From a virus, in IMG/VR virus record IMGVR_UViG_3300025030_000061, positions 31,052 to 95,051 of that record: a DNA stretch of 64,000 nt. One strand, written 5' to 3'. The notes under the pieces are model-generated. The model made no database searches, was not told the origin of the DNA, and worked only from the letters and a program-made list of their open reading frames with translations. Made by a program: the position numbers and the translations under genes. Positions 27,716 through 62,104 of this stretch are shown one piece after another. Each line of letters starts with the position of its first letter. Position 1 is the stretch's first letter.

Positions 27716-27755
27716 AGTATCCACTATCTTGTAGCGCATATCAAATGTTTTGCCC
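27716..27755 (-). promoter_or_regulatory. class B promoter: GGCAAA-TTGATA-N17-GATACT with operator in spacer
   Basis: gggcaaaacat TTGATA tgcgctacaagatagtg GATACT. Confidence 0.7.
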
Positions 27756-43851: not shown

Positions 43852-44835
43852 CTAGCTGATGATGCCTGCGGCCTTCAGCGCAGCGCTGATGTCCGGCCTA
43901 CCTCCGGCCATGTCTATGGCCTTTCGTAAAAACGTGATCGCTTCCTGGTGGCTTGCGCCTCGGCACTTCTTGAGGTGCTCGACCGTTCCGGGGATGCCTC
44001 CCTTGAAGGCCATCGTGTCGGGGTCGAAGCATCCGCAGGGGGTGGCAATCTGCTCGGCGCCATAGAGGACCTGGGTGAATCCCCTGTCGAGGTTTTCGCG
44101 CATGGTCGGCGCGTTGCCGTTCGCCATCGGGATCCCGGTGTCGGTCCCCAGGGCCTTCTGTAGCTCCGCCTCGGCCGGGTGGTCGTGACTGCCGCACTGG
44201 TGCCCTGGGGTATGCAGCGGGTGGCCGGGGTGGCAGCGACCGCAGCACATGCTCTTGCGGAAGCACTCGACGGTGGCGCTCATGTTGACCGGCTTGTGCG
44301 TTACAGCCAGGTGTGTCACCAGCGACTTGACGATCTTGTTGCCGTGGCGCTTTATCACTCCGCCTTCCACGGAGTAACTGAGTGCCCGCGGGGCTCCGGC
44401 TTTCTGCAGTGCAGTGCCGAGTTCCCACATCTCGTCTGCCAGGCGGGTCTGCTCGCTCCTGGTGTTCCCGCTCGACTGGAGCAGCTCGCCTTCGACGTAG
44501 AGCCCCTTGTCTCGGATCTCCGCCTTGGTCGGGTATCCGATGATGAACGGCATCTTGCCGCCGCTGGATCCGCAGCTTGGGCATTTCCGAAACGGGGAGA
44601 CGTGGCCGCATTGGAGGCACTTCGCCTGGTGGTCGTAGTTGAGGAAGCCGGTCGCCATCAGCGGGGCAAAGTCGATGCCGTTCTTCAGCACCACCTCGCC
44701 GTCCTGGTCCATGTCCTCGGTGGAGGCATATCCGCGGATGATCCGACGGTTGCCGTCGCCGCTTTTCCTTAGTTCGACCTCGATCGGGAGTTCGAATAGG
44801 ATGTCGCGCTGTTCTTCTGGCTCGTGCTGTTCCAT
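43852..44835 (-). CDS. prohead protease
   Basis: IRGYASTEDMDQDGEVV, GFLNYDH, IGYP, LSYSVEG, LAVTHKPVN. Confidence 0.9.
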   Translation of the reverse strand: MEQHEPEEQRDILFELPIEVELRKSGDGNRRIIRGYASTEDMDQDGEVVLKNGIDFAPLMATGFLNYDHQAKCLQCGHVSPFRKCPSCGSSGGKMPFIIGYPTKAEIRDKGLYVEGELLQSSGNTRSEQTRLADEMWELGTALQKAGAPRALSYSVEGGVIKRHGNKIVKSLVTHLAVTHKPVNMSATVECFRKSMCCGRCHPGHPLHTPGHQCGSHDHPAEAELQKALGTDTGIPMANGNAPTMRENLDRGFTQVLYGAEQIATPCGCFDPDTMAFKGGIPGTVEHLKKCRGASHQEAITFLRKAIDMAGGRPDISAALKAAGIIS

Positions 44836-46828: not shown

Positions 46829-49800
46829 CTAGTTCACGTAGCGGGCGAAGCGGCGCATAGTGCTGTCGTCGGTAATGTCGAGCGATCCGTACCAGTTGGT
46901 GCCTAGCAGCAGCGCCTTGCCGAGATCGTTGCCGTTGTGCTTCATATCGGCGATCGCCCAGATCGACTCGGGGTTGCTGCTGGTCAGCAGGTCACCGACC
47001 TTGGCAGCCTGGTCCGGTGTGAATTGCCGGAATGTGCTACGGCGGCCTCCGGCTGTCACAGTCTTGTCGCTCGTCTGCATGAAGGAGAGGTTCCGTTGGA
47101 CCTGGTTCTTGATCACCTGCAGGGCGTTGGCGGTCGTCGCCTTGAATCCGAAGCGTGCCCAGGTGTACCCGCCGACATCGATGTTGGCGTGGACGTCGAC
47201 TCGGGTTGCTCCGATCACTTTGTAAACTCCCATCGATGCGCGGAGAAAGGCTTTGCCGCTGTTCCCTCCTGATGTGCCGGCCTGGAAGTAGGAGTGGTCC
47301 ACCACCACCTTTCCGGTGGATTGCTTGGTGAATGTGCGGTCAATCCTGGTCCCGTCGCTGCCTCTCATTTCTACCGCTATCATCCTGTCATCGTAGGACG
47401 ATACGGAGACCCGAAAGCTGGTGGTTCCGCCGTAGTCGGCGAGCATCGTACCGAGCGCGTGCTTCAGCTCGTCTGGGGAGTTGAGCCCCATGACGTTCTG
47501 GGCCTTGGCTCCGATGGCCGGCCAGTCGATGCCCCATCCGCTGATGTTGGCGCCTGGCACGCCGTGTGCCTTGAATCCGCTACGAACGAGCTTGGTCTGT
47601 AGGTTCGTTAGTGCTGCCCGGTTCCTCTCGTTTGCCTCTCTGGCGGCTCTGTCCCTTTCGACCGCTGCCGTGCGTTCTGCTGCCTCGCGCTGGGCTCGGG
47701 CTTCGGGTGTGTCCGGTACCCAGGTCCCGGCCTGGTAGTCCCTGGCGCGGTTCTGCATGGCTGCGTCCTGGGTGATGTACCGGCGTGCCAGGTCCCGCTG
47801 CGCCGTGTCGCGGTAGGGTTGCATGGCTCCGGCTTGCCCGCGGTTGTTCCAGTAGCCATCGGTGCCGGTGTAATAAGTCAGGGGGTAATCCGGCCGTGGC
47901 ACGAATCCGAGCTGGGCTTCGGTCAGGTTGAGCGGGTTCGCGGATCCCGGTACCGGGTTTGTGGGCGGCTGGGCCGCGGCTGGTGCTGAGGGGCGCCGGG
48001 TCCTCGGTGCGGGTGCCGAGCGTGGGGTTGCTGTCTCGCGCTGCACTACTGGGGCCTGCGGCATTGGGGTGCTGTTCGCTTCTCCGCTCTGGCTTGCCGG
48101 CTGCGGTGTGCCGTCGCTGTTGTGGCCGAAGTGGCGCAGCAGCAGGGTGCGGTAGTCGTCGGCCGCTCTGGTGTACCCGTTGCTCCTGGTGGTCTGGATG
48201 GCGAGGATGGCCGCGACCGGGTCCTCCTCCTGGGCGGCTTCGTAAAGGCGATTGATCTTGTTCTGCGCGGAGATCAGCGCCGAGTTCTGCATGTTGCCGG
48301 CGGTGATGGTGGTCGGTGCCGGCGCCGCGGCCAGGGTTTCCTCCGGTGGCGCGATATTCCGTGCTGCGTTGGCTGCGGCCAGCAGCTCCGCCCTGTAATC
48401 ATCGACGGCCGCGTAGTTGGCGCGGGTCCGGCTGGTGCTCAGGTTGGCAATCGCATCGATATTGCCGATGAGGGCGAGTTGGCGGAGGTGGGCGGAGCGC
48501 CTGGCTGTCATTCGGTTGCTCTCGCTGGTGTCGGAGAAGTACGGGACCGCCACCTGGCGCATGGCGTCGATCATTGCCTCCTCGGGGGAGAACGCTCCGG
48601 TTGCAGCGTGCCCGAGCCTGACCGCCTCTGCGGATCCGGCGCGGAACCAGCGGCGGACGGGCTGTCCGTCGGGTCCGGCCGTTGTGCGGAGCACGTATCC
48701 GGGGTGATTGGCAATCGCCGTAGATTTGATCAGCAGGCTCCGGTCGGGGATGGTGCGGATCGACTTAAACATCCGCATCTGGAGCATGCCGGAGCGGTCC
48801 CCTGGCAGGTGTTCAGCCATGGGGGTGGTTTCGCCCTTGGTGCCTTCTTCGCGGCGCTTATGCTGGTCTGCTGCGATATCCTCGGCGTCGAGGACCTTGA
48901 GTCGTGTCGCCTCGTCCAGCTTGCCCCAATGAGGCAGGTGGCCGAATCGCTCCCGCTGGAGGCCGCGGACCTCGTGGCTGTCCTGGGAGAAGGAGAGCTT
49001 CTGGCCGTACTTGCGGACGCGGCTGTCTTCGTGCTCCATGACATGCACCAGGGCGCCGTGGGGCGTTACCCGGTCGTAGGACCGGACGCGGGCCTTGATC
49101 AGTCGGGCATTACCGGCTCTGCTGCCTGCCGTTCCTTCTCGGCCTGCTGCTCCTGCTCCTGGGCGGATGCCTTTTCCTTCAGCTTCTTGGCAGCCTTGGC
49201 CTTCCTGTTCGCTTTTGCGTCCAGCCGGTCGGCTTCCTGCAGCGCCCGCTTGAGCAGGTCCCCTTTCCGCTGGTACAGCTTTTTGTCCTTGTCGTTCTCG
49301 GCCATGCTGACCTCCTTGGTGTTTTAGCAGCAGGTGTGTGAAGGCGCGTGCCTGGAATGATTGCGCCTTGTTGAGATCGGCGCCGCTGTTCGCCTGCTGC
49401 AGGGCCTGCTTAACCACCGTCTCCTTCGATTTGGGCTCTGCCGGTCCCGAGAACATATCGACCTCGGGGTTTTCCCTGCTCGCCACCTCCGTCTTGATGG
49501 CGTGGCTTATCCCCTTAAAGACGTTTTCCAGCCGGCTCCTGGATCCGGTGCGGTCGGCGATTGCCAGGATCATGTCGGTGGCGTAGTCGGTCTTGAAGGT
49601 CGGGGTATCCCCGGTGAAGTTGAGGGAGCCCGCGTTGCGGAGGGTGTGCTCCAGCTCGGCGCGGCTCTGTCCCTGGTGGCTCAACGTGTATTCGATCGCC
49701 TCCATCATGTCGGGGACCACGTCGAGGTCGTCGTGCCCCTTCACCTGGGCGAAGTCTCCGACGCAGGCATTCAGGGCCCGGAGTACATTCCGGATCTTCG

Positions 49801-52800
49801 GCTTCGCGCTCTCGGCTTGCAGCTCGGTCAGTACGCTGCTGCCGTACACCTTGGTGAAGACCGCGTTTTGGATCCGCTCGATCGCCTTCTTGTTCGGATC
49901 GCCGTCGGCGTCCCGGAGGCTGGCCGATTCGTTTTTCCCGAGTTTGTCGAGAAATCCGTTGATAAAGTCCATGTTGTCGTCGCAGTAGATCTCGCCGTCC
50001 TCGTCGGGCTGGAACTTCTTGAGGAGGGTGTCGTCTATCCGCTCGGAGTCGGACCATGCTTGTTCGGCTGGGGAGGAGCCGAGGTTGCTGCTCTGGTTCG
50101 CCTCCCTGGCAAACTCGGCGCGATCGGTGTTTGAATCGTTCTCGTCGCGCAGGCGGACCAGTACCGGCTGCTGCATCCCTTCCACGTCTTCCGGTTTGAG
50201 CCCGAAGTGTTCGGCTTCGCCTTTGAGCCATGTCTTGTACTTGTCGGCCAGGCCGCGCTTATAGGCTTCGGAGAGGGCGATGGTGCGGCCGTTCCCACTC
50301 TCAACCGCGCCATCCTTGCCGACGATCGGGGCGCCGTCTGCGGCATTGGCGGAGTGCCCCAGCTGCTCGGGGCGGATGTCGTTCATGATGTTTGCCATCT
50401 GCATCTGGGACGAGAGGCGTTCGCGCTCCCTGGGCTGGATCTCCTGCGGGTAGGCGCGGTTGATGTGCCCCTGGATGGTGTGGCTTGTGGTCAGGTCGCT
50501 CGCTTCCACCAGGGAGTACTTGCTCTGGACCTTGTTGCCCTTCGCGGTGTAGGCCAGGTTGGCGCGTCCGGTGATGAACTTCGGGTCCTTCTTCCCGGTG
50601 TCGGTTTCCTCGACCTGCCTGCGGCCGGCGATGCTGGTCACCTGCCCCTTCGCTTTATCCGGGTCGACGCCGGCGAAGTGGACCTTGTGCTGGTCCCCTT
50701 CCTTGCCGATCGTCACGGTGTGCCCGTCCTTCTCGAACTTGCTGGCGGTTGCCTCCCGGTCCACCTTGTGCCCGAAGTGGGCCAGCAGCTTCTCGCGCTC
50801 GTCGTCTACCGCTTTGAGGTAGGGGTTCGCCCTCGAGGTGTGGATGGTGGTCAGCGCAGCCACTGGGTCGTCGGAGTTCTTGGCCGCTTCGTGCATCTTG
50901 GTGATGATGCGCTGCGCCGATACCAGAGCGGAGTTCTCCTGGTTGGCTCCCTTGATCTTGCCGGGCTCGGGCATGTCCTCTTTTTTGCCGACCGCTTTCC
51001 TCTCGTCCTTCTTGACCGGGTGCGTCTCCTTCTCCTTCCAGCCGTTCCCGCGCAGGTGCGTCATGAGGTCCTCGCCATGCTTCAGCGTGCTCCCCTGGTG
51101 GACCTGCTCGCCGTGTTTGTTCTCGTGGGCAATCACGTCCTGGTGCTTCCGCACGCGGCGGTCGTTGTGCTCCTGGACGACGGTCCCGTCCTGCCTGGCG
51201 TACTGCTGAATGTGGCTCTTGATAAGGTGGAATCGCTCCATGAGGCCGTCGATTGGGCTGGGCGCGTAGAGGTGGACGCTCTTGTGTAGGCTGTTGACGT
51301 CGACCAGGGCTTTCCCCCAGGAGGTGAAGCGCACGGCGCGGTCGTCGAGGTAGATGTCGGCAATCGGCTTGCCGGGGTTGGCTCCCTCGGGCTGCTCGCT
51401 GTTCGTGTTGATCTCGTCGAACGGGATCCCGTTGTCGGCAAGGTATGCCCGCAGGACAGGGGTGTCGGGGCGGGTGGTGTGGATGATCAGCTTCCAGCCG
51501 GCATCCTTGAGCTCGTGCATCCCCTCCGCGGCGCCGTCCACCGGGGGGCCGAATTTGTCAACGCCGAGGAATCCCTGGGAGTAGTCCGCGAGCGGGCCGT
51601 CGAAGTCTATGCATGCGGTCCGCTGGTGCTCGGCTACGGCTTTACGGAGGTCGCCAAGCTCCTGCATGCTTTTTAGGAGTCCGCGCAGGTCCTGCATGCC
51701 GCGAGTCCTGGCGAGGTTCGCCAGCGCCGAGGTCATCCTGACCTTCACCTGGTCGGCGTCCCATCGCTCCCCCTCGGGCGCCGGCATGTTGGCTCGGTTC
51801 AGCGCCGCGGCGATGTCCTGGTCCTTGTAGGCGTGGTCGAATCGGTCCAGGCCGAACTTCATCTTGATGATGGCTGCCGCGATCGGGTCGTCGAGGGATT
51901 CAAGGTGCGTGACGATCCCCTGCATGAGCTGGGCCTTCTTGGCTGCGTCCGATTCGTGCTCGGGCACGGTGGCGGCCTGGGCTGCGATCCCTCGCATGCC
52001 GCTCTCCTGGTCGTCCTCCATCCCGCCGTCGTAGGAGGTGTGTTCCTGCAGGTGCCTCTGGTGGGCGATGATATGGCGCAGCGCGGCGGTCTTCCCGGCG
52101 CGGGTCATAGACATAAGTATGCGGCTATCGCTTCCCTCTCCGGCCAGCGTGTCGCGCAGGTCGTCCAGGTCCTTCTCCGGGGCTCTGCTCGTCTCGGTGC
52201 GGTACGAGTTCATGGCTGCCGCGATGTACTCGCTGTATAGCTCGTTGGCGTCGTTGTCGTCGTTATGAAGGGCTCCCCCCAGGTCGATGTAGTGGGGGTT
52301 GAATCCGTTGCTGGTCGCCAGGTGGGCGAGGGTGCTTTTCATACGGCTGACGAATACCGGGTGGGTCAGGACCTTCCCTTCGTCGAGCTGTGCCCGCTGC
52401 TGGCCAACCTCGGCGCGGCGCCGGCTCTCCTCGGTGGAGATGGTGCTTCCCCCCCTGGAGGTCGTCTCCCTGGTACCGGTGCGGGCAGTTTCAGCCTTGT
52501 GCTCCTCGTCGGTCCAGACGTTGTCCCGGTCGGTGGTGATCTGCGCCGGGCGGAACGTGTAACCATCCCTTACAGGTTGGATGGTGTAGCCTTCCTCGTG
52601 GCTCCCCGCGACGATCGTGCCCTTTTTCTTCCTGGGCTGGCCGGGTACCTTGTAGTAGACCTTGTGGCCGTGCTGCAGGCGGTCGCCTTCCTTCCCTCTG
52701 ACGGTCACCTTCGCCATGGTCGCGGCCACCTGCACGGTCCCACCGTTGGCGGTATGCCTGGTGGTGCCTTCACGGTGGTGGACCTCCTCGTGGGCAGGGG

Positions 52801-52867
52801 CTCGGTAATCGAATAGGTTGAGCTGCGACTTTAAGAGATGAACGACGTGTTTGATGCCATTTAACAT
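46829..52867 (-). CDS. polyvalent head-cargo polyprotein (sigma-like, HAD, repeat domain, ddrB-ParB, GNAT-like)
   Basis: IIKMKFGL...QDIAAAL (sigma r4), IDFDG...KPIADIYLDDRA (HAD), GAPIV...VESGNGRTIAL (ParB), VHANIDVGGYTWARFGF (GNAT-like). Start at 52867 after GGAGGG. Confidence 0.8.
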   Translation of the reverse strand: MLNGIKHVVHLLKSQLNLFDYRAPAHEEVHHREGTTRHTANGGTVQVAATMAKVTVRGKEGDRLQHGHKVYYKVPGQPRKKKGTIVAGSHEEGYTIQPVRDGYTFRPAQITTDRDNVWTDEEHKAETARTGTRETTSRGGSTISTEESRRRAEVGQQRAQLDEGKVLTHPVFVSRMKSTLAHLATSNGFNPHYIDLGGALHNDDNDANELYSEYIAAAMNSYRTETSRAPEKDLDDLRDTLAGEGSDSRILMSMTRAGKTAALRHIIAHQRHLQEHTSYDGGMEDDQESGMRGIAAQAATVPEHESDAAKKAQLMQGIVTHLESLDDPIAAAIIKMKFGLDRFDHAYKDQDIAAALNRANMPAPEGERWDADQVKVRMTSALANLARTRGMQDLRGLLKSMQELGDLRKAVAEHQRTACIDFDGPLADYSQGFLGVDKFGPPVDGAAEGMHELKDAGWKLIIHTTRPDTPVLRAYLADNGIPFDEINTNSEQPEGANPGKPIADIYLDDRAVRFTSWGKALVDVNSLHKSVHLYAPSPIDGLMERFHLIKSHIQQYARQDGTVVQEHNDRRVRKHQDVIAHENKHGEQVHQGSTLKHGEDLMTHLRGNGWKEKETHPVKKDERKAVGKKEDMPEPGKIKGANQENSALVSAQRIITKMHEAAKNSDDPVAALTTIHTSRANPYLKAVDDEREKLLAHFGHKVDREATASKFEKDGHTVTIGKEGDQHKVHFAGVDPDKAKGQVTSIAGRRQVEETDTGKKDPKFITGRANLAYTAKGNKVQSKYSLVEASDLTTSHTIQGHINRAYPQEIQPRERERLSSQMQMANIMNDIRPEQLGHSANAADGAPIVGKDGAVESGNGRTIALSEAYKRGLADKYKTWLKGEAEHFGLKPEDVEGMQQPVLVRLRDENDSNTDRAEFAREANQSSNLGSSPAEQAWSDSERIDDTLLKKFQPDEDGEIYCDDNMDFINGFLDKLGKNESASLRDADGDPNKKAIERIQNAVFTKVYGSSVLTELQAESAKPKIRNVLRALNACVGDFAQVKGHDDLDVVPDMMEAIEYTLSHQGQSRAELEHTLRNAGSLNFTGDTPTFKTDYATDMILAIADRTGSRSRLENVFKGISHAIKTEVASRENPEVDMFSGPAEPKSKETVVKQALQQANSGADLNKAQSFQARAFTHLLLKHQGGQHGRERQGQKAVPAERGPAQAGAAGSRPAGRKSEQEGQGCQEAEGKGIRPGAGAAGREGTAGSRAGNARLIKARVRSYDRVTPHGALVHVMEHEDSRVRKYGQKLSFSQDSHEVRGLQRERFGHLPHWGKLDEATRLKVLDAEDIAADQHKRREEGTKGETTPMAEHLPGDRSGMLQMRMFKSIRTIPDRSLLIKSTAIANHPGYVLRTTAGPDGQPVRRWFRAGSAEAVRLGHAATGAFSPEEAMIDAMRQVAVPYFSDTSESNRMTARRSAHLRQLALIGNIDAIANLSTSRTRANYAAVDDYRAELLAAANAARNIAPPEETLAAAPAPTTITAGNMQNSALISAQNKINRLYEAAQEEDPVAAILAIQTTRSNGYTRAADDYRTLLLRHFGHNSDGTPQPASQSGEANSTPMPQAPVVQRETATPRSAPAPRTRRPSAPAAAQPPTNPVPGSANPLNLTEAQLGFVPRPDYPLTYYTGTDGYWNNRGQAGAMQPYRDTAQRDLARRYITQDAAMQNRARDYQAGTWVPDTPEARAQREAAERTAAVERDRAAREANERNRAALTNLQTKLVRSGFKAHGVPGANISGWGIDWPAIGAKAQNVMGLNSPDELKHALGTMLADYGGTTSFRVSVSSYDDRMIAVEMRGSDGTRIDRTFTKQSTGKVVVDHSYFQAGTSGGNSGKAFLRASMGVYKVIGATRVDVHANIDVGGYTWARFGFKATTANALQVIKNQVQRNLSFMQTSDKTVTAGGRRSTFRQFTPDQAAKVGDLLTSSNPESIWAIADMKHNGNDLGKALLLGTNWYGSLDITDDSTMRRFARYVN
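49099..49305 (-). CDS. nested 68-aa charged helical protein in an alternative frame of the polyprotein
   Basis: AAGGAGG 5 nt before ATG. The polyprotein frame reads as a low-complexity linker here. Confidence 0.55.
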   Translation of the reverse strand: MAENDKDKKLYQRKGDLLKRALQEADRLDAKANRKAKAAKKLKEKASAQEQEQQAEKERQAAEPVMPD

Positions 52868-52898
52868 GCTTCCCTCCGGCGGGTGCTTTGTGCCTGTC

Positions 52899-52938
52899 AT
52901 CCTAAGTCATCACGTAGCGCATATCAAACATTTTGCCC
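52899..52938 (-). promoter_or_regulatory. class B promoter TTGATA-N17-TAGGAT for the polyprotein
   Basis: gggcaaaatgt TTGATA tgcgctacgtgatgact TAGGAT. Confidence 0.72.
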
Positions 52939-52945
52939 ATTCATA

Positions 52946-52966
52946 TCATTCTGTATCTGCGTCTTT
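52946..52966 (+). promoter_or_regulatory. class A motif (partial), divergent from the polyprotein promoter
   Basis: TCATTC tgtatctg CGTCTTT. Confidence 0.5.
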
Positions 52967-53007
52967 ACTCCTCCAAGCGGTACATCTTCTCCCTTGGAGG
53001 CTCCACC

Positions 53008-53349
53008 ATGAAAAAATCGGCTCTGGTTCCCGTCAAATCTCTTTTCTTGGACATCGCTGCTGGCAGCCAGTCGGTCAACTTCGTGGAGCTGCTCTCCGGC
53101 TGGGGGCAGCGCCTGCGGATCTCCATCAAGTCTGATTCCTATCTCGTCCAGTCCTATGCTCGCATTGAGGTCTGGTCCGCGGCGGAGCTGAAATGGAACC
53201 TGGTGGCCTACGTGCAGCACGGCAGCATGCTGACGCCGGCCGGGCTGATCTACAATCCGAATCGCTCGGGCTTCCAGGCCTCCCACTTCCAGGCCGATCG
53301 CACCGAGCTGATCCGTCTTGCCGGTCTTGTGCTGGGTCCGGTCGCCTAA
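53008..53349 (+). CDS. hypothetical phage protein
   Basis: GGAGG RBS. RLRISIKSDSYLVQSYARIEVW...LKWN. Confidence 0.7.
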   Translation: MKKSALVPVKSLFLDIAAGSQSVNFVELLSGWGQRLRISIKSDSYLVQSYARIEVWSAAELKWNLVAYVQHGSMLTPAGLIYNPNRSGFQASHFQADRTELIRLAGLVLGPVA

Positions 53350-53354
53350 CCGTA

Positions 53355-53375
53355 TCATTCCATACAACGGTCTTT
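53355..53375 (+). promoter_or_regulatory. class A motif (partial)
   Basis: TCATTC catacaac GGTCTTT. Confidence 0.55.
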
Positions 53376-53419
53376 CTCTACCCATAGCGGCATACAAAAA
53401 ATTTCTCTGGAGGCTTACC

Positions 53420-53872
53420 ATGCTGATCACCGAAACCCATAAAAACTTCCCCTGCGGTTCCAAAGGTCGTCTCACCGTCAAGTCCGATGCCGGCGAAGTC
53501 CTGGCCGTGATCATGACGCCGGTCCAGAAGGCTCGGAAATACTGCGAGGCCAATCCCGAGACGCCGCAGGGTGTCGAATTCGCCAGGGTAATGGTCGTTG
53601 GACAACACTCGGAACTGCAGGATGCCGTGGACGCTCTGGTTCCGGTCCCCGCTCCTCCGGTCCTGGCCGGCGCCAATCCGGAAAACACGGCGCTCGTCTC
53701 CGCGCAGCGCAAACTGGTGAAGCTTCACGAGGCGGCGCAGGGCGACGATCCGGTCCTGGCGCTTGCGGCGATCAAGACCTCCCGCGGCAATAAATACCTC
53801 AATACCTGCGACGACTACCGCGTCGCGCTCCTGGCTCACTTTGCCCAGGCCGGCATCGACGCAGCGGGGTAG
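53420..53872 (+). CDS. stand-alone protein carrying the polyprotein repeat domain
   Basis: GANPENTALVSAQRKL...DDYRVALLAHF aligns by eye with two polyprotein segments. GGAGG RBS. Confidence 0.75.
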   Translation: MLITETHKNFPCGSKGRLTVKSDAGEVLAVIMTPVQKARKYCEANPETPQGVEFARVMVVGQHSELQDAVDALVPVPAPPVLAGANPENTALVSAQRKLVKLHEAAQGDDPVLALAAIKTSRGNKYLNTCDDYRVALLAHFAQAGIDAAG

Positions 53873-53876
53873 GGTC

Positions 53877-54089
53877 ATGTTCGTCCGATATTCTGGCCGC
53901 TCCTGGCGCTCGTCTGGTTCTCACGACGCACAGGGGCGGCTTCTTCTTTCTCCGCTGATCGGTCCCGGTCCTGGGATCGCTGCCGATCCTGACGAGGTTG
54001 AGCTCTGCTCCCCGCGGGAGGTGGCTGCAGCGCGCCGTCTCCTGGCCAAGCGCATATCATTCTGCGGGCCGGGCTTAGGTCTGGTGTAG
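53877..54089 (+). CDS. small hypothetical protein
   Basis: MFVRYSGRSW..., weak RBS. The 3' end overlaps a class A motif. Confidence 0.4.
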   Translation: MFVRYSGRSWRSSGSHDAQGRLLLSPLIGPGPGIAADPDEVELCSPREVAAARRLLAKRISFCGPGLGLV

Positions 54090-54090
54090 G
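54057..54090 (+). promoter_or_regulatory. class A repeated motif
   Basis: TCATTC tgcgggcc GGGCTTA ggtct GGTGTAGG, preceded by a partial operator GCGCATA. Confidence 0.68.
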
Positions 54091-54113
54091 TCATTACGGT
54101 TCTGGAGGATGTC

Positions 54114-54518
54114 ATGAGAAAACAGTTCAAGTTTGAGGGCCGGGTCGGTTGCATCGATGATTCTGGTTTCATCGCCTGGGGCGGCATTGGGTGCTCCATC
54201 GGTTCCGCTGGTCCCGATCTGCGTGACGCGATTCTCCAGCAGACCAAAACCTCCGCCCTTTTGCTCGAGGACGTCATGCCTCTCTCCCGCGAAGATTCGG
54301 TTTACCTTCGCTCCATCTCGGAACTCGTTTCCCGGCATTGGACCGAATCGCTTGACGCATTCTTCGCCAGGCTGCAGGGCATCCTCCCGCTCCCGGAAGG
54401 TTTCAAGATCGGTAAGGGGGGGCATCACATCTGGATCGCCAAGTCGGTACCTAAAACCGAGGCAGATACCTCTGGCTGGCATCGGCTCTGCTGCATCACT
54501 GAGCGGGGTGCCAAATGA
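54114..54518 (+). CDS. hypothetical protein
   Basis: GGAGG RBS. IGKGGHHIWI. Confidence 0.65.
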   Translation: MRKQFKFEGRVGCIDDSGFIAWGGIGCSIGSAGPDLRDAILQQTKTSALLLEDVMPLSREDSVYLRSISELVSRHWTESLDAFFARLQGILPLPEGFKIGKGGHHIWIAKSVPKTEADTSGWHRLCCITERGAK

Positions 54519-54757
54519 TAGATTACAGCAACGTGGTAGAGCCGATGCGGTGTGAGGCTCGGGGCGGTCGTCGCCTTGGGCGCTTCCTCCTGGCGCTGGT
54601 GGTCCTGGGGTCGTCCTTGTGCTGGTGCATCGCCGGGGGGACCGACCGCCGGCCGGTCGAGGTCAAGAAGCCGGCGCCGGTCGAGTTCTCGGCCGCGCAG
54701 ATCAATACGATGCGGGCGAATGGTCGCCTGCTCAGTCAGAGGGGGTTGCTGCCTTAA
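54515..54757 (+). CDS. small single-TM membrane protein
   Basis: RFLLALVVLGSSLCWCIA, ATGA coupling. Confidence 0.55.
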   Translation: MIDYSNVVEPMRCEARGGRRLGRFLLALVVLGSSLCWCIAGGTDRRPVEVKKPAPVEFSAAQINTMRANGRLLSQRGLLP

Positions 54758-54830
54758 GGATTCATTTGCGGGGAGGGTAGACAGGATTACAAATTACTGA
54801 TATTGTTGCGGCATATTCCCTGGAGGGTCT

Positions 54831-55214
54831 ATGCCGCTTTTTTGTGCCCACTGTTCGACTCCTGCTGACGACGATGCTCCCTGGTGCGAGTGCTGCGGAA
54901 GTGACCTAGTGCCCGCTACCCTGGGTGTGGTCGCTGCCCTGGCTCCGATCCGCCGGCATGACGTAGTCGTCGATCGTCTCCGGGTGAACTGCGTGGCCTA
55001 CGGCGAGCGCCTCCGTCACGATCCCCTCACCGAGACGATGTCCTCGGTCTTCTCCTGCGGTCGCAATCCGGAGAGGATCGATTGCGTCGGTTGTCGGGTC
55101 TGCACCACCTGCGGAGACCTGCGCTGTACCTGCGGGCTTCTCTCCATCTCGATCGGGGTAAAAACAAAGGGCACCGTCATTGATACGGTGCCCCTACGTC
55201 CTCGCCTGGTCTAA
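54831..55214 (+). CDS. Cys-rich Zn-binding protein
   Basis: CAHC, CECC, CVGCRVCTTC, CTC. GGAGG RBS. Confidence 0.6.
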   Translation: MPLFCAHCSTPADDDAPWCECCGSDLVPATLGVVAALAPIRRHDVVVDRLRVNCVAYGERLRHDPLTETMSSVFSCGRNPERIDCVGCRVCTTCGDLRCTCGLLSISIGVKTKGTVIDTVPLRPRLV

Positions 55215-56454: not shown

Positions 56455-58010
56455 TATTTCAGCAGCTCGTCAGCCGCGGTCTGTACTTCGGAGACCGCCT
56501 TCTTCAGATCGTCCTTGTCGCCGCCAGGCTCCTCTCCGCCGGGTTTGTGCTCGGCAGCCTCCTGCTGGGCGGTTTCGCCGGCTTCGTGCGCAGCATCCTC
56601 GTGTTTTTTCCCCTCAAGGAGATGCGTGTGGAGGGCTCCGAAGTGCTTAGCATTGCCGTCCTCCCCTTTATGGCTGTTCCATGCTGCCTGGTGGGCTTCT
56701 GCTGCCTTTTTGTGGGCGGATGCGGCCGTCTGGTGGTCTTCGGCCGTGCCCGTCTTCCTGGCGGTCCTGCTGGCCTTGTTTGCTTCTTTGGTGAGCGCGT
56801 GGGCCTGCCGGCTATCCTCGTGCTCCTTGACGGCCGTGCCATCCTGCTTCGTGTAGCCGGTGACGTGGCTTTTCAGCAGTTCGGCTGCCATGGCGCCGAG
56901 TGCGACCGCTTTACTGAGGTCTTTGTGCATGGTGGGGCTCCCTTGATCAAGGTATCTGGAATAAACTTCTGAAAGATCTAGTTCCTGCTTCAGCACGGTG
57001 GCGACCTTCTCGTGCCTGTTGTTGCCGGCGACGTCATGGCCGTAGAGCTTCGAGCGCAGGATGTTACCGTCTGCTGATATGTCTGGGATGTGGCCGGAGG
57101 CATTGACCGCCTCGATCCTGGGCGCCAGGGTGACCTCCGCGACCGCTCCCAGGAAGTGTACTCGCGGTGGTTTGATCTCCCGGAGAAACTCTATCAATTC
57201 CTGGTTCGAGACGGCCTCCTCCTGGGATGGGATACCTACCACGAAGCGGTCGACGCCGATAATGCCGACTATCTCCCGGTAAGCGTCTGCCAGCGTCTTT
57301 GCTCCTACCTGCAGGGGCACGATGCAATTCGGGTTGAACTGGATCTGGCCGCTGATCCAGTCCCGGTGTTTCCGGTAAAGGTCCGCAGTCCCCTCCTGGT
57401 CCCCGATGATGTCCGGCATGACGAAGTACGGCGGGGTGATGGGCTCCTCGGCAGGGTTCGCTTCCTCGATGGCGTCCATCACGGCGTCGTATTTAGCCAG
57501 GACCTTCTCGAAGTCCATGGTCTTCCACTCTGGCGCCTCGTTGGCTCCCATGAGGGATAGCTGCTGTGCGGTCTGGTGGCTCTTGAGGTTCTTTCTGAAC
57601 AGCGAGAAGGCGCCGGAGTCGATGAAGACCCTAGCTCGGTGGTTCACGATTCCATTTGCTAATGCCTTCATCGCGGGCGCGGTCAGGAGGCCTATGTCGA
57701 TGCCTAATCCCACCTTACCGCTGTCTGCCAGGACGCTGGTCCCCGCCTTCAGTTCGGTGATGCTGGTCATCCCCGATGAAAACCTGGTGATTGATGCGAG
57801 GTTCACCTTCGGTGCGGTCACCTGCTGGGCCGACCGTACAATGTGAGTGCCTCTCGCCTGGATGTGGCTCACCGTCCCCGCGGCGTTACGACGTTCGTAT
57901 GCGGTGTGGTGAGGGTCATGGCTCGCCGAAAAGTCGAAGCCCTGTTGGCTTTTACGGAGGCTGCTGCTTGCGGTCGTGCAGTCTGTTATGGCGTTGGCGA
58001 GTTCGTTCAT
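56454..58010 (-). CDS. head cargo protein with TGT/DpdA-like (queuine tRNA-ribosyltransferase fold) domain
   Basis: FIDSGAFS, MPDIIGD, VPLQ, VGIP, VHFLG, ISADG. Tagged termini (LRKSQ, LLKSH). Confidence 0.65.
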   Translation of the reverse strand: MNELANAITDCTTASSSLRKSQQGFDFSASHDPHHTAYERRNAAGTVSHIQARGTHIVRSAQQVTAPKVNLASITRFSSGMTSITELKAGTSVLADSGKVGLGIDIGLLTAPAMKALANGIVNHRARVFIDSGAFSLFRKNLKSHQTAQQLSLMGANEAPEWKTMDFEKVLAKYDAVMDAIEEANPAEEPITPPYFVMPDIIGDQEGTADLYRKHRDWISGQIQFNPNCIVPLQVGAKTLADAYREIVGIIGVDRFVVGIPSQEEAVSNQELIEFLREIKPPRVHFLGAVAEVTLAPRIEAVNASGHIPDISADGNILRSKLYGHDVAGNNRHEKVATVLKQELDLSEVYSRYLDQGSPTMHKDLSKAVALGAMAAELLKSHVTGYTKQDGTAVKEHEDSRQAHALTKEANKASRTARKTGTAEDHQTAASAHKKAAEAHQAAWNSHKGEDGNAKHFGALHTHLLEGKKHEDAAHEAGETAQQEAAEHKPGGEEPGGDKDDLKKAVSEVQTAADELLK

Positions 58011-60358
58011 TTTGTCTCTGAGACATCCTCGCCCATGTCCTTTAGCCGCTCGACGATCGCTTTGGCGTGCCCTGCGCTGGGGTATTGGTGCAGTTCGTGG
58101 ATCATCTGTTCCACCTCGGCACGGTGCTGCTGCATCTGCGGGTGAGCGAGGAGCCCGGTGGCTGCCGCGTCGACCTGGGTGATGAGGTGCGCGATCTCGG
58201 GGGCTACCGAAACTACAGCGCCTTGGTGTTTGGGGTACGGGTTGTCTATTGGGCTGCCATCAGATTTCGTGTCTCCACTCCAACCATGGTGCCATGCCAT
58301 GTTCTCGAATGTTTCATCCGTGTATGGGTTAGCTCTCTCTGACTTACCTGCCGATTTGGCGGCTTTACCTTCTTCATATTTTTGATGCCTTGTATCGGGC
58401 CTACCGTGGAGCAGCGGTGCCGCATCTTCGCCCTGGATGGTGATCTCCTGTTTTTTGCCGCTGCTCCAGACCAGTTCGGTCTTGTCGCCGGCCTTGAGGT
58501 CGCCGAGGAAGTCTTCGGTGTAGGCCTCCCGCGACTCGATGATCTTCTTGATGTCGGCGGTGGTCATGCTGTTCGGCGCGGGGTAGGTGGGGCGCTGCGG
58601 GATCCTGTACCCGGCGTCCACTTTTGCCTCCTGGACGGCAACCGGCTGTTCATCCTCGGCTGCTGCTTTCCTTCGGGCGATCTCGTTGCCGACCTGGGCA
58701 AGCATAGCGTTGTCCCCGCTGTTAGCGAGTCCAGTCACCAGTTGGTGCAGTCCTTCGTCGGGGACCAGGTGGAGGTTGGCAATCGGGCCTCCCGCTGGCG
58801 CCGTGCCGCTTCCTTCTAGCTCGCTGATGTGCCGGTTCAGCATCCCTCCGACCTCGTCCGCTCCCCGCTTTCCGAGGCGCTCGTGGCCCTGGTACTTGAG
58901 GATGTTCTTCGCCGTCTGCAGGTACTTCTCCGGGGTGCTGTAGTCGGGATGGTCGGTGCTGATGCCGAGCCCTCCGCGGCCTCGCTTGTCGTGCTTCTCG
59001 AAGGCGTCGTGCAGTTCCTTCACCATTGCATGGTGGTCCTGGGGTTGGGTCGGGGCTCCCTTCGCCTGGATCTGGCTAGTGGTGCCTCTCGCATTGGTAC
59101 GGGTGTACGCTGCGTGATGCGGGTTCGAAGTCGCGGTTGCCGGGGCTGCGAAGTCAAAGCCCATCTGCGACTTTCTGAGGAGGTCCGGTCCCGTCTGTGC
59201 CGCGTCCTCGATGGCCTTCAAGAGTTCTTCTATCTTGTTCATGGTGATGTCCTCCTGTCGACTATAAGGCGACGGCGCAGAATGATAGATCGCTTTTTTA
59301 AACTTGCCGGGTCTATAGCTTGGGTTCTTCCCAGCCTCTTTGTCTCTGTGATATCGTTTTAGTGCAAGTTCATTTTCTCTTTGGCGTCGGTCCTCGCTTT
59401 TATACTTTTGAAGCCCGCTATACTTAAAGTTTTTTACCGCACTGCTGCCACCTACATCTTCTTCTGAAACTATTTTAAATGTCCATCCTCTTGCATGGCA
59501 GTACTCCGTTGCTGCTTGCCATTTTGTTTGGTTTATTGCGTAGTCGTGTTCGCATTTCCATTTAACTTCTTCGATTTCTTTACGTCCATCGTTGTATTCC
59601 ACTAAAAAGTCGGGAAGGTATCTGCGGTCCCCATATTTTATTATGGGCACATTTTTGGTCCAGGTCTTGACTGTACCGTCCGCGTCCAGCTGCTGCATGC
59701 GGAGAATTTCTGTTATTGATCCTGCATGTTCCCACAGGCCTGTTTTGGTTGATTGCCACCAGCCTTTAATGCCGCGTGGGGTATAGTTCTTTTTTGCCTT
59801 GATCGCAGACGCTTCGCTCTGTGTTCTGAGCGCGCCTGCCTTTTTTACCTGGCCAGCCACCGAACCTGTACTGGTATTCAAACGCTTACCGATCTCGGTT
59901 GGAGACATTTGATCTTCTGTATAAAGCCTCACCATTTCATTCTGCAAATCTAGTGGGATCTTCATGGAACGTATGAGTCCTTCATTCCGCATCCATCGAA
60001 TTACCGTGGTCTGCGGAATGCCCATTTCATCCGCTATTTGCTTTGTAGATTTTCCCTCTTTGTAGCGCTGTGCAACTTCTTCTTTATCGCCTCGTTCTCT
60101 TAAAGGGACATTGTATCTTGTCAGGATGCTTCTTACTCCATTTGCGGAGCAGGAATGTTTCTCCGCTATTTGTGGTAATGTCAATTTGCTGTTTTTATAC
60201 TGTTGGATAATCGAGTTGGTAGTTTCTTCGCTCAGATAGTGTTTATTTGCAGGGTTCTCCCTTCCGCGTGAGTCTTCGTGTGCGGTTACTATATTCCCGT
60301 TCTTTTTTGTGTATGCCTTGATATGGCTCTTGAGCAAATGCACCAGATTACTCCCCAA
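58007..60358 (-). CDS. head cargo fusion: HTH repeats, TnsA-like endonuclease and C-terminal modules (internal start at 59242)
   Basis: Three HTHs, RYLPDFLVEY...EEVK...KWQAATEYC, internal AGGAGG-ATG MNKIEELLKA, RMF-like YEEG...NPY...WHHGW. Confidence 0.72.
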   Translation of the reverse strand: MGSNLVHLLKSHIKAYTKKNGNIVTAHEDSRGRENPANKHYLSEETTNSIIQQYKNSKLTLPQIAEKHSCSANGVRSILTRYNVPLRERGDKEEVAQRYKEGKSTKQIADEMGIPQTTVIRWMRNEGLIRSMKIPLDLQNEMVRLYTEDQMSPTEIGKRLNTSTGSVAGQVKKAGALRTQSEASAIKAKKNYTPRGIKGWWQSTKTGLWEHAGSITEILRMQQLDADGTVKTWTKNVPIIKYGDRRYLPDFLVEYNDGRKEIEEVKWKCEHDYAINQTKWQAATEYCHARGWTFKIVSEEDVGGSSAVKNFKYSGLQKYKSEDRRQRENELALKRYHRDKEAGKNPSYRPGKFKKAIYHSAPSPYSRQEDITMNKIEELLKAIEDAAQTGPDLLRKSQMGFDFAAPATATSNPHHAAYTRTNARGTTSQIQAKGAPTQPQDHHAMVKELHDAFEKHDKRGRGGLGISTDHPDYSTPEKYLQTAKNILKYQGHERLGKRGADEVGGMLNRHISELEGSGTAPAGGPIANLHLVPDEGLHQLVTGLANSGDNAMLAQVGNEIARRKAAAEDEQPVAVQEAKVDAGYRIPQRPTYPAPNSMTTADIKKIIESREAYTEDFLGDLKAGDKTELVWSSGKKQEITIQGEDAAPLLHGRPDTRHQKYEEGKAAKSAGKSERANPYTDETFENMAWHHGWSGDTKSDGSPIDNPYPKHQGAVVSVAPEIAHLITQVDAAATGLLAHPQMQQHRAEVEQMIHELHQYPSAGHAKAIVERLKDMGEDVSETK

Positions 60359-62033
60359 TGGTTATGTGGAGATATTTTTTTTCTCTCTGATTTTGCTTGG
60401 GCTGCTGTGACTTTTGCATTGAGTCATCTTCTTCTTGATCCTGCTGGTCCTGCTGGTCCTGCTGTTCCATCATGTTAAAAGTATTTATATAATTTGGGAT
60501 CGCGACATCTGCCGGAAAATTCCAGGGGTTAGTATCTGCTCCTTCTTCTTTTTTAACTGGTCCAATAGGGTCAAGCCCTTCTTCCATCCTAGCCTCATTT
60601 CTAGTCATCCATTTAGAGACTCGTGAGGTTCTGACGGCTACTGTTTCTTGTTCGTCATCGGGGTTGAGTCCTACAAGTATCAGTTTCAGATCGTCGTATC
60701 TGGGTTTGATTATGCAATACGTTAGCCACTCACAGAGGTCTGTTAGCGATGGGATGAGGCCGCGTTCCTTGCTGAATTCTATCTCGTCCGACGGGTTGTG
60801 CCCGCCGAGCCCGCTCTGGCCGCTGGTGCCGGCGTAGGTGGAGAGGTTGAGTGTGCTGGGGTGGGCGCCGTAGGCCGCTGCCTTCAGGTTAATCGCCAGC
60901 TCTATCATCTGGTCGAATAGCATGTCCTTCGGGCTTTCGCGCAGTTTGACGCTCTTGACCTCGAAGCCTTCCTTGTCGCCGGAGGGGATTACAGGGAGGC
61001 GCCAGTTGCTGCCAATCCCGCCGGCTTCGGCTAGTATCTGCTGCTTGAATGCGGCGAGGCCTTCCTTATCGTAGTCCCCGGAAACGGTCAGGATTTGCTC
61101 CGGGTAGTTCGTGCGGAACATCTCCCGGTTGTACGTCCATGCCATAAGGAGGGTGGTGGTGATGTCGAGGGAAAGTTCCAGGCGACTCTCGCCGTACCCG
61201 AAGCGGTTGAGCTGGTCGCTCGGGTTGCTGATGTGGACGCTGATCTCGTCAGGGAGGAATGCCGCGGTGATCTGGCCGTCGATCAGCTGAACGTGGGAGC
61301 ACCTGGCGAGGTCGAATCCGGAGGCCTGGGATGCTCGCTCCATTCTGAATCCGTCGTCCTTCCGGTTCTTCTCGTTTTTCTGGGCCCAGGCGCGGATCGC
61401 CTCGTCGACGTTTTTGACGCTCTCCCCGGGGAGCCAGTGGAAGGCAGAGTATCCCTGTCCGTCGCGCCGCTTGTACCGGAGGAGAACCTTTCGGTCTATG
61501 ATCAGCTCGGCGCGGGTGAGGATGCCGACCAGGTCCTTCAGTCCGGTGTGCGGTCGGACCTTCTGAGGGTAGATGTCGAGGTACGGTTCCGGCGTCGGGT
61601 CGGAGAGCAGTTCCTCCATCTCGCGGCAGCGCTCGTCGTCTCCCTTGGTCACCTTATAGTTCTTGTCATCGTGGCGCTTGTGGACGACGCGAAAGCCGAC
61701 CTCTTTGCTTTTCCCCTCGTTGGCCTGCTGCCAGATGCGCTTCTGCTGGTCGATCCTGGCGCGGATCAGAATGGAATCGACGAAGGATTGCCGAGCGGCT
61801 TCATACAATATACTGAATTGTGGGGTACCTTGAGGTTTCTCTCGTGCTCCGTATGCCACCATATTCTGCGCCAGGGCGTAGGTGGAGAAGAAGGAGGCCT
61901 TGTTGTCTTCCTTCTGCATCTTCTTCGCTTCGGACTTGACGAGGTGCTCGATGGATCGGGCCGGCACGATTAGGCCGGCCGGTGTCTCTATCGGGTCGTT
62001 GAGGAAGTCTGAGGTTTTGGGGAGGTGAATCAT
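60348..62033 (-). CDS. portal protein
   Basis: FGYGESRLE, YNREMF, WRLPVI, KDMLF, SKERGLIP, MTRNEARMEEGLDPI. Start after GGAGGG. Confidence 0.9.
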   Translation of the reverse strand: MIHLPKTSDFLNDPIETPAGLIVPARSIEHLVKSEAKKMQKEDNKASFFSTYALAQNMVAYGAREKPQGTPQFSILYEAARQSFVDSILIRARIDQQKRIWQQANEGKSKEVGFRVVHKRHDDKNYKVTKGDDERCREMEELLSDPTPEPYLDIYPQKVRPHTGLKDLVGILTRAELIIDRKVLLRYKRRDGQGYSAFHWLPGESVKNVDEAIRAWAQKNEKNRKDDGFRMERASQASGFDLARCSHVQLIDGQITAAFLPDEISVHISNPSDQLNRFGYGESRLELSLDITTTLLMAWTYNREMFRTNYPEQILTVSGDYDKEGLAAFKQQILAEAGGIGSNWRLPVIPSGDKEGFEVKSVKLRESPKDMLFDQMIELAINLKAAAYGAHPSTLNLSTYAGTSGQSGLGGHNPSDEIEFSKERGLIPSLTDLCEWLTYCIIKPRYDDLKLILVGLNPDDEQETVAVRTSRVSKWMTRNEARMEEGLDPIGPVKKEEGADTNPWNFPADVAIPNYINTFNMMEQQDQQDQQDQEEDDSMQKSQQPKQNQREKKYLHITIGE

Positions 62034-62040
62034 TATTGGT

Positions 62041-62104
62041 CCCTCCAATCGGGCAATTGGAGGGAGTATGAACGATTGTGTAGCGCATATCAATTATTTT
62101 GCCC
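62041..62104 (-). promoter_or_regulatory. class B promoter TTGATA-N17-CATACT plus RBS-occluding hairpin
   Basis: ggcaaaataa TTGATA tgcgctacacaatcgtt CATACT, then CCCTCCAAT-tgcccg-ATTGGAGGG. Confidence 0.72.

Follow-up and report, generated by a model that had tools for sequence, protein, structure and literature searches.

The locus and the four copies of the domain

This study concerns a 64,000-nucleotide stretch of viral DNA (hereafter the window), bases 31052-95051 of the 95-kb linear IMG/VR virus record IMGVR_UViG_3300025030_000061, and a small helical domain of about 65 amino acids (aa) that is encoded there on both strands. Three copies of the domain lie inside a 2023-aa polyvalent protein, and the fourth forms the C-terminus of a 150-aa protein encoded on the opposite strand, which we call the stand-alone (SA) protein. 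The original prediction had announced a domain of about 60 aa repeated in the polyprotein and encoded once more on its own; the four stretches translate as it claimed, and their alignment is highly significant. A profile search of the whole 95-kb genome returns exactly four copies and no fifth. The two genes and the copies are listed here, A, B and SA denoting the settings in which the domain is found, and DP (canonical) and GD its two conserved subtypes.

46829-52900, minus strand: gene of the polyvalent protein, 2023 aa counted from the ATG at 52900
50765-50959, minus strand: copy 1, setting A (aa 648-712), 107 bits, upstream of the ddrB-ParB domain
48365-48547, minus strand: GD-type copy, first of the setting-B tandem (aa 1452-1512), 13.7 bits, in the GD clade with support 99
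48119-48310, minus strand: copy 2, DP-type, second of the setting-B tandem (aa 1531-1594), 105 bits, predicted local distance difference test score (pLDDT) 90-97
53420-53872, plus strand: SA gene, 150 aa, GGAGG 7 nucleotides before the ATG at 53420, 16 homologues
53657-53851, plus strand: SA copy, DP-type (aa 80-144), 111 bits, pLDDT 85-90

With the SA copy as sole query, a tblastn search of the 95-kb genome returned the two strong polyprotein copies, with E values of 2.4e-18 (66% identity) and 5.6e-17 (54%), and nothing further. An independent hidden Markov model (HMM) was built from 82 canonical copies in other proteins, with neither the window genome nor its nearest relative included, and gives 111 bits for SA, 107 for copy 1 and 105 for copy 2. 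The remaining copy had been described as degenerate; it is not decaying and belongs to the conserved sister subtype, GD. Matched against the same HMM of canonical copies, it reaches 13.7 bits over its second half (aa 1481-1508), where 2000 shuffles of that segment peak at 9.9. The GD subtype has the consensus ...AGD.DGI.NF.TSRTRANYA.VDDYR.ALL and precedes a canonical copy in about 37 of the 38 B-type proteins that have room upstream.

The paralogues within the window share 60-65% nucleotide identity, with a synonymous divergence (dS) of 0.6-1.7. Because of this divergence and of the clade structure described below, the copies are old and separately maintained lineages rather than a recent repeat. 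Recent duplication, gene conversion and an inversion switch between the inverted copies were each considered and are ruled out by the same nucleotide identity and by the saturated dS.

Distribution, settings and phylogeny of the domain

A profile made of six copies was searched against 1.84 billion representative proteins (E<=1e-3), only 69 of which carry the domain. The settings, mapped by local HMM and BLAST searches over all retrieved proteins, comprise 25 clusters for A, 45 clusters for B and 16 proteins for SA. In setting A, a single copy directly follows a His-rich segment of about 86 aa in one orthologous family of polyvalent proteins, whose members have their first ~420 residues in common and continue after the domain usually with ddrB-ParB, otherwise with unnamed regions. 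Setting B is a unit of about 600 aa, made of the GD+DP tandem, a disordered Pro-rich linker and a C-terminal part of about 420 aa, and is found either as a free protein (e.g., P0032) or as the C-terminal portion of proteins containing WGR, ART-PolyVal or LPD3 domains. In setting SA, a private N-terminal domain is joined to one DP-type copy. A few odd forms exist besides: one protein of 382 aa pairs a single copy with an HExxH domain, another of 305 aa has three copies, and a third is a solo copy of 103 aa. The domain always stands beside an enzymatic or other functional module, and no protein of known function consists of it alone.

The His-rich segment of setting A is represented once in the window:

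50963-51223, minus strand: His-rich 'pre' segment (aa 560-646), delimited by BLAST and an alignment of 25 A-type proteins

It always directly precedes the A-type copy and keeps the pattern H-x3-H-x4-H-x6/7-H. A zincin site at its HExxH was considered and rejected, the Glu being lost in several homologues; since this residue is not conserved, the segment may be less a peptidase site than a metal-binding knuckle.

A quick maximum-likelihood tree search on 67 columns recovered the A (support 99), SA (90) and GD-type (99) copies as clades, with B paraphyletic. The lineages also differ in the invariant residues of the loop between the second and third helices (H2-H3 loop), which read NKYLNTC in SA, NPYLKAV in A and NGYxNxA in B. 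As a separate observation, the N-termini of P0097 and P0101 bear Y-N-P-N-Q-P-R-D-x-x-G-R-W-like motifs, which resemble the beta-hairpin elements heading the units of the window polyprotein.

The family had been called unrecognised, and this stands: searches of Pfam (E<=10), NCBIfam, the PDB (by sequence and by profile), Foldseek (PDB, BFVD) and the ESM Atlas gave nothing for the domain, and no known family, let alone a well-characterised structural one, was matched. Likewise, the SA protein has no PHROG match and no family or structure relative in the libraries searched for the domain, and megablast and tblastn against the phage collection yielded no match. PADLOC, which is without anti-defence proteins, gave no match for SA, four other proteins encoded beside it or the polyprotein, and nothing connects the domain to the inhibition of host defence that had been proposed for it.

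The most pertinent point of reference is the class of large polyvalent-protein-associated (LPD) domains, which are small uncharacterised domains of polyvalent proteins that also have solo versions beside phage structural genes (Iyer, Burroughs, Anand, de Souza and Aravind 2017, PMC5512222). The present domain recurs in at least 70 polyvalent or related proteins with ddrB-ParB, WGR, ART-PolyVal, LPD1 or LPD3; its solo form lies within the head module of the window, between portal and protease, with the same layout in two further loci, L004 and L005; and the database searches unify it with no known domain. One of its carriers, WP_121091302.1, bears the UniRef name 'Large polyvalent protein-associated domain-containing protein', and the signature behind this name was not found. 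Judged on these comparisons of sequence and context, the domain is probably a new, LPD-like accessory domain of polyvalent proteins with solo forms.

The solo gene and its coupling to A-type polyvalent genes

The plus-strand open reading frame that ends in the fourth copy is a genuine gene under purifying selection, since it has a Shine-Dalgarno site, 16 homologues and a low ratio of non-synonymous to synonymous divergence (dN/dS), which amounts to 0.16-0.18 for the domain and 0.24-0.44 for the N-terminal domain against the orthologues of L005 and L004. In its product a short, variable linker connects the N-terminal beta/alpha domain with the three-helix domain at the C-terminus. The family has 17 members, the 16 homologues of SA showing 53-79% identity and lengths of 136-262 aa. 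Its N-domain is conserved and its C-terminal domain very strongly so, while an insert varies between 0 and 90 residues. Among SA homologues the C-terminal domain is 84-90% identical, tighter than the N-domain and the most conserved of the three lineages.

53420-53617, plus strand: SA N-terminal domain (aa 1-66), three strands and two helices (AlphaFold, alignment)

Invariant in this N-domain are E5, T6, H7, G13, G16, R17, Q36, R39, C42 and E43. We also asked whether SA is a free copy of a whole polyprotein unit and rejected this, as hhalign links the N-domain to no segment before the A or B copies; because of this lack of relation and because the window genome has no second copy of the N-domain, SA is not a freed polyprotein unit. 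Nor was the N-domain found in longer proteins, which is weak evidence. Two cysteines, Cys42 of the N-domain (53543-53545) and Cys130 of the helical domain (53807-53809), are invariant in the solo family (alignment A2), the second of them standing where the polyprotein copies have Ala or Val; they could form an inter-domain disulfide or a metal site.

SA is divergent from an A-type polyvalent gene in all three loci that can be read, namely the window, L004 (identical to L007, a 79.9-kb virus contig) and L005. Scans of IMG/VR and of metagenomes provided these three distinct SA loci only, to which one pair is added by inference: the records of P0008 (SA) and P0029 (A) each give a contig of 61,154 nucleotides, and the two would thus be co-located. 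In three viral loci where the polyvalent N-terminus is common but setting A is lacking, no SA gene occurs within 10 kb. The L004 genome contains no copies other than one of A and one of SA; B is absent. The genome of Pararobbsia silviterrae has the tandem only, with neither A nor SA; on its contig the B-type gene of WP_121091302.1 lies beside a large terminase gene and other phage genes.

Two elements lie upstream of these genes:

52913-52936, strand not assigned: conserved element of the divergent intergenic region, GTAGCGCATATCAAACATTTTGCC, present in the window, L004 and L005, consensus GTAGCGCATATCAAAC(A/T)TTTTGCC
53352-53361, plus strand: RTATCATTCY motif, 68 nucleotides upstream of the SA start, with sister sites at 52943 and 54054

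The RTATCATTCY motif has only three sites in the 95-kb genome, each 60-68 nucleotides upstream of a gene of the short plus-strand cassette to which SA belongs. Five upstream regions align mutually, and those with RTATCATTCY share TTGCC-N5-RTATCAYT-N12-CTTT-N12-AGCGGYAYAT, which does not have sigma-70 spacing. SA possesses a conserved, promoter-like upstream element of its own. The cassette, at 53008-55214, breaks the minus-strand module, and its first three genes each have a GGAGG; the first (53008-53349, plus strand, 113 aa) matches phrog_10108, a family of unknown function, and the other cassette genes match nothing. In the window, this phrog_10108 gene, which has a duplicated upstream element, separates SA from the intergenic region; L004 and L005 lack it at that place, and SA comes first there.

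Read on the minus strand, the intergenic element at 52913-52936 contains a -35-like TTGATA. The related motif GCRYATATCAWWC (at most 1 mismatch) has 6 sites against 0.58 expected, at 27734, 31965, 52917, 54050, 62083 (+) and 45126 (-). Several of them stand 40-55 nucleotides upstream of minus-strand gene starts, again with a -35-like TTGATA on the minus strand, and the motif may represent a putative class of late promoters. The site at 54050 points antisense into the plus-strand cassette.

Predicted fold of the module and the GNAT-like domain

The SA protein was modelled with AlphaFold2 from a 17-sequence alignment, and the B unit as 623 residues from 42 sequences. In the SA model (mean pLDDT 83), a low-confidence linker separates the N-domain from a bundle of three helices (residues 90-106, 111-117 and 125-149; pLDDT 85-90). 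The B-unit model (mean pLDDT 87.6) begins with a beta-hairpin and two three-helix modules (pLDDT ~95), which are followed by a disordered stretch (203-243), a helical region with one very long helix and an alpha/beta domain (384-623). The module is hence confidently predicted as a compact three-helix bundle, with pLDDT 85-97 in both models. At about 60 aa the bundle lacks pocket-forming elements, and its conserved polar residues are placed at the helix caps and in the H2-H3 loop (TSRxNxY...DDYR); wide fold searches with VIA-align yielded generic helical matches only (best Z 6.6). Such a module seems too small and too plain for an enzyme and looks non-catalytic.

The alpha/beta domain is the fixed partner of the tandem and ends the window polyprotein:

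46832-47551, minus strand: C-terminal alpha/beta domain with GNAT-like fold (aa 1784-2023), AlphaFold pLDDT ~95, fixed tandem partner

Nearly all of its top 50 structural matches are GNAT acetyltransferases, with Z of 6-7.3 over 125-140 residues and Foldseek E values of 0.03-0.4. A sequence-based assignment was rejected, as the GNAT models of Pfam match none of the 42 members of this C-terminal family. Because of these middling structure scores and of the missing sequence model, we speak of a GNAT-like rather than a GNAT domain. After its central strand stands a Gly-rich loop with the consensus AG-x-x-G-x-G-x-G-K, which resembles but differs from the CoA-binding Q/R-x-x-G-x-G/A loop of GNATs. 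An acyl-carrier-protein-like role of the helical module beside this domain was considered by eye and discarded, for the helix pattern differs and no acyl carrier protein is among the structural matches. The GNAT-like domain itself, recognised by the motif GGY[ACT]WA[RK][FY]G, was seen at 56 bacterial loci (L012-L065) from many phyla, including Bacteroidota and Alphaproteobacteria, and is accompanied by the helical pair in the Pararobbsia locus only.

Genomic setting of the polyvalent gene

The virus record, complete according to CheckV, was found in groundwater metagenome runs and has a G+C content of about 60%. From 14.6 kb to 62.7 kb its genes are nearly all on the minus strand, and the polyvalent gene lies there between the genes of the portal (60348-62093) and of the prohead protease (43852-44835); the gene next to the polyvalent open reading frame encodes InPase and DUF5661 domains. 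The first ATG of this frame, at 52900, has no ribosome-binding site. An in-frame ATG at 52867 (MLNGIKHVVHLLKSQ...) has a GGAGG 5 nucleotides before it, and the L004 and L005 proteins start at the position aligned with it; for both reasons it is the likelier start. Besides the copies of the helical domain, the protein contains a HAD-like phosphatase and a ddrB-like ParB domain:

50147-50542, minus strand: ddrB-like ParB domain (aa 787-918), Pfam PF18763, E 2e-36

The PF18763 model scores 125 bits against a cut-off of 27.6, thus above its gathering score. The ddrB-ParB domain, the HAD-like phosphatase and the position in the head module together identify the protein as polyvalent and of phage type, as defined by Iyer et al. 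2017 (PMC5512222), in whose survey a portal/prohead-protease setting with ddrB-ParB is typical of capsid-delivered proteins. To judge by gene position, the polyvalent protein would be capsid cargo and arrive with the virion.

The same head module encodes a 783-aa protein (58007-60358, minus strand) with helix-turn-helix domains and a TnsA-like endonuclease N-terminal domain (PF08722, E 1.7e-14). Outside the window, a 471-aa open reading frame contains a weak tyrosine-recombinase-like match (G000:C1:25794-26255) of 20.7 bits, below the Pfam cut-off, and a temperate life style of the phage is possible.

Discussion

The question arises as to why a virus should carry the same small module three times in one giant protein and once more in a separate protein of the opposite strand. 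We tentatively favour the idea that the module is a non-catalytic docking or adaptor domain which takes its carrier to a defined partner, and we infer that this partner is shared, that the polyprotein copies are delivered in the virion and that the two forms differ in the timing of their expression. The module would bind a macromolecule common to all its carriers, whether of host or phage origin, and by this binding would bring the ParB-like module, the GNAT-like module and the N-domain of SA to the same place, the polyprotein copies arriving with the virion and the solo copy coming from new synthesis. What speaks for such a function is the number of copies and the significance of their similarity, the settings in which they occur, their age, the purifying selection, the synteny and the predicted fold.

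The original prediction had seen in this arrangement one and the same activity, supplied pre-made in the virion and again by new synthesis. The position among head genes together with ddrB-ParB and the promoter-like element of SA agree with the two sources of supply; the sameness of the activity fares less well, because the H2-H3 loop residues are lineage-specific, which disfavours a plain redundancy of the copies. Several points also weigh against docking to a common partner. The same loop residues could mean three different partners instead of one. The fold gives no functional lead, because only generic helical structures were matched. B occurs without SA or A in Pararobbsia, and A and SA occur without B in L004, so that the copies need not act together. 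Finally, the synteny comes from three readable loci only.

The main rival to docking, possible if rather unlikely in our estimation, is that the copies bind each other, in cis in setting B (GD with DP) and in trans in setting A, where the single copy would be completed by SA. SA would in that case serve the ParB-carrying unit as a dedicated partner, be it a chaperone, an assembly factor, a regulator or an antidote. The distribution of the copies lends itself to this idea: the tandem is present in almost every B-type protein with upstream room (about 37 of the 38) and the A copy is always single, SA adjoins the A-type gene in each of the three loci, the L004 genome holds A and SA as its only copies, and the B-only genome of Pararobbsia is without SA. 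The divergent layout with its conserved, shared intergenic region would moreover fit coupled regulation. The analogy is imperfect, however, as SA and A are both of DP-type whereas the cis pair joins GD to DP, and the A/P-rich linker between the tandem copies looks flexible. It is less probable still that the module is one half of a two-part unit and that SA, split off from A, switches the injected or nascent ParB-carrying effector or lends it its N-domain. If this were true, the system would represent a trans-completed adaptor controlling a capsid-delivered effector.

The head-gene surroundings invite another explanation, according to which the module is a packaging or assembly signal that docks its carrier to the scaffold, the portal or the inner capsid, with SA as cargo or loading helper. 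The polyvalent gene does lie between the portal and the prohead protease, and P0027 adjoins a large terminase gene. We nevertheless regard this as unlikely, since SA belongs to the opposite strand and to a separate cassette of small genes with an upstream motif of its own, and since three loci with the same polyvalent N-terminus are without the domain altogether. SA also lacks the Leu-x-Lys|Ser/Ala and beta-hairpin element that heads the polyprotein units, and this hairpin is the better candidate for a loading tag.

That the free copy might compete with the cargo is a further thought, and it appears quite improbable to us. Such a decoy would occupy the partner of the cargo copies and either restrain the effectors of the phage itself once the host is taken over or keep out superinfecting relatives; the high conservation of the SA domain, ahead of the other two lineages, and the separate promoter-like element would suit it, as would a temperate life style, for which the recombinase-like match leaves room. 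That match is below its cut-off, the loop residues of SA differ from those of A and B, and SA keeps a conserved N-domain (dN/dS 0.24-0.44, invariant residues) for which a pure decoy would have no need.

An inert structural spacer, or a mere junction of conserved and variable parts of polyvalent proteins, agrees with the module closing the conserved N-terminal core in A and opening the conserved C-terminal unit in B, and is highly doubtful in view of the many strongly conserved polar residues and lineage-specific invariants, of the retention of the module in a 150-aa solo protein under purifying selection and of copies that, at 60-65% DNA identity, are too divergent to exchange cassettes by homologous recombination.

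Polyvalent proteins are regarded as the weapons that a phage delivers first, and most of their small accessory domains are without an assigned role. The module described here is unusually tractable, having about 60 residues, a confident prediction, a solo form of 150 aa and a clear comparative pattern, and knowing its partner would reveal how effectors of this kind are targeted or controlled. Specialists might find interest in the conserved divergent pairing of SA with a polyvalent gene and in the way a tandem in cis contrasts with a solo partner in trans. The module would add a family to the domain catalogues used for annotating phage dark matter; if it were only a spacer, the gain would be one of routine annotation.

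Comparison with known systems

Polymorphic toxin systems have pre-toxin or junction domains and orphan cassettes, and our module is reminiscent of these in being small, conserved and placed at the border of conserved and variable regions, with an extra copy nearby. It differs in that the extra copy ends a different, selected protein on the other strand and in that the nucleotide identity is about 60%; because the copies share only this much, recombinational swapping is implausible.

In the Dar/Ddr system of phage P1, small neighbouring proteins act with large ones, and the loading of Dar proteins needs small partner proteins. The window resembles this system in having a polyvalent protein with ddrB-ParB in the head module, DdrB being the prototype of ddrB-ParB. 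For P1, processed DdrB is reported to be incorporated into the head (Iyer et al. 2017, PMC5512222). No sequence relation of SA or of the helical domain to any P1 protein was apparent.

The GNAT domains of polyvalent proteins typically adjoin ART (PMC5512222, section 'GNATs'). The tandem-carrying unit likewise ends in a GNAT-like fold, and some of its carriers also contain ART-PolyVal; unlike those GNATs, its 42 members include no Pfam GNAT match, its structural scores (Z 6-7.3) are below the safe threshold, and the domain is widespread without the helical pair.

The closest likeness is with the LPD domains. The module departs from them in matching no LPD model in Pfam (E<=10), a comparison that covers the LPDs represented in Pfam, and in being very rare (69 proteins) and tied to three fixed architectures instead of being freely shuffled. 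Like them, it is a small globular domain of giant phage proteins, found in the company of ddrB-ParB, ART-PolyVal, WGR, LPD1, LPD3 and InPase, and it also has solo forms.

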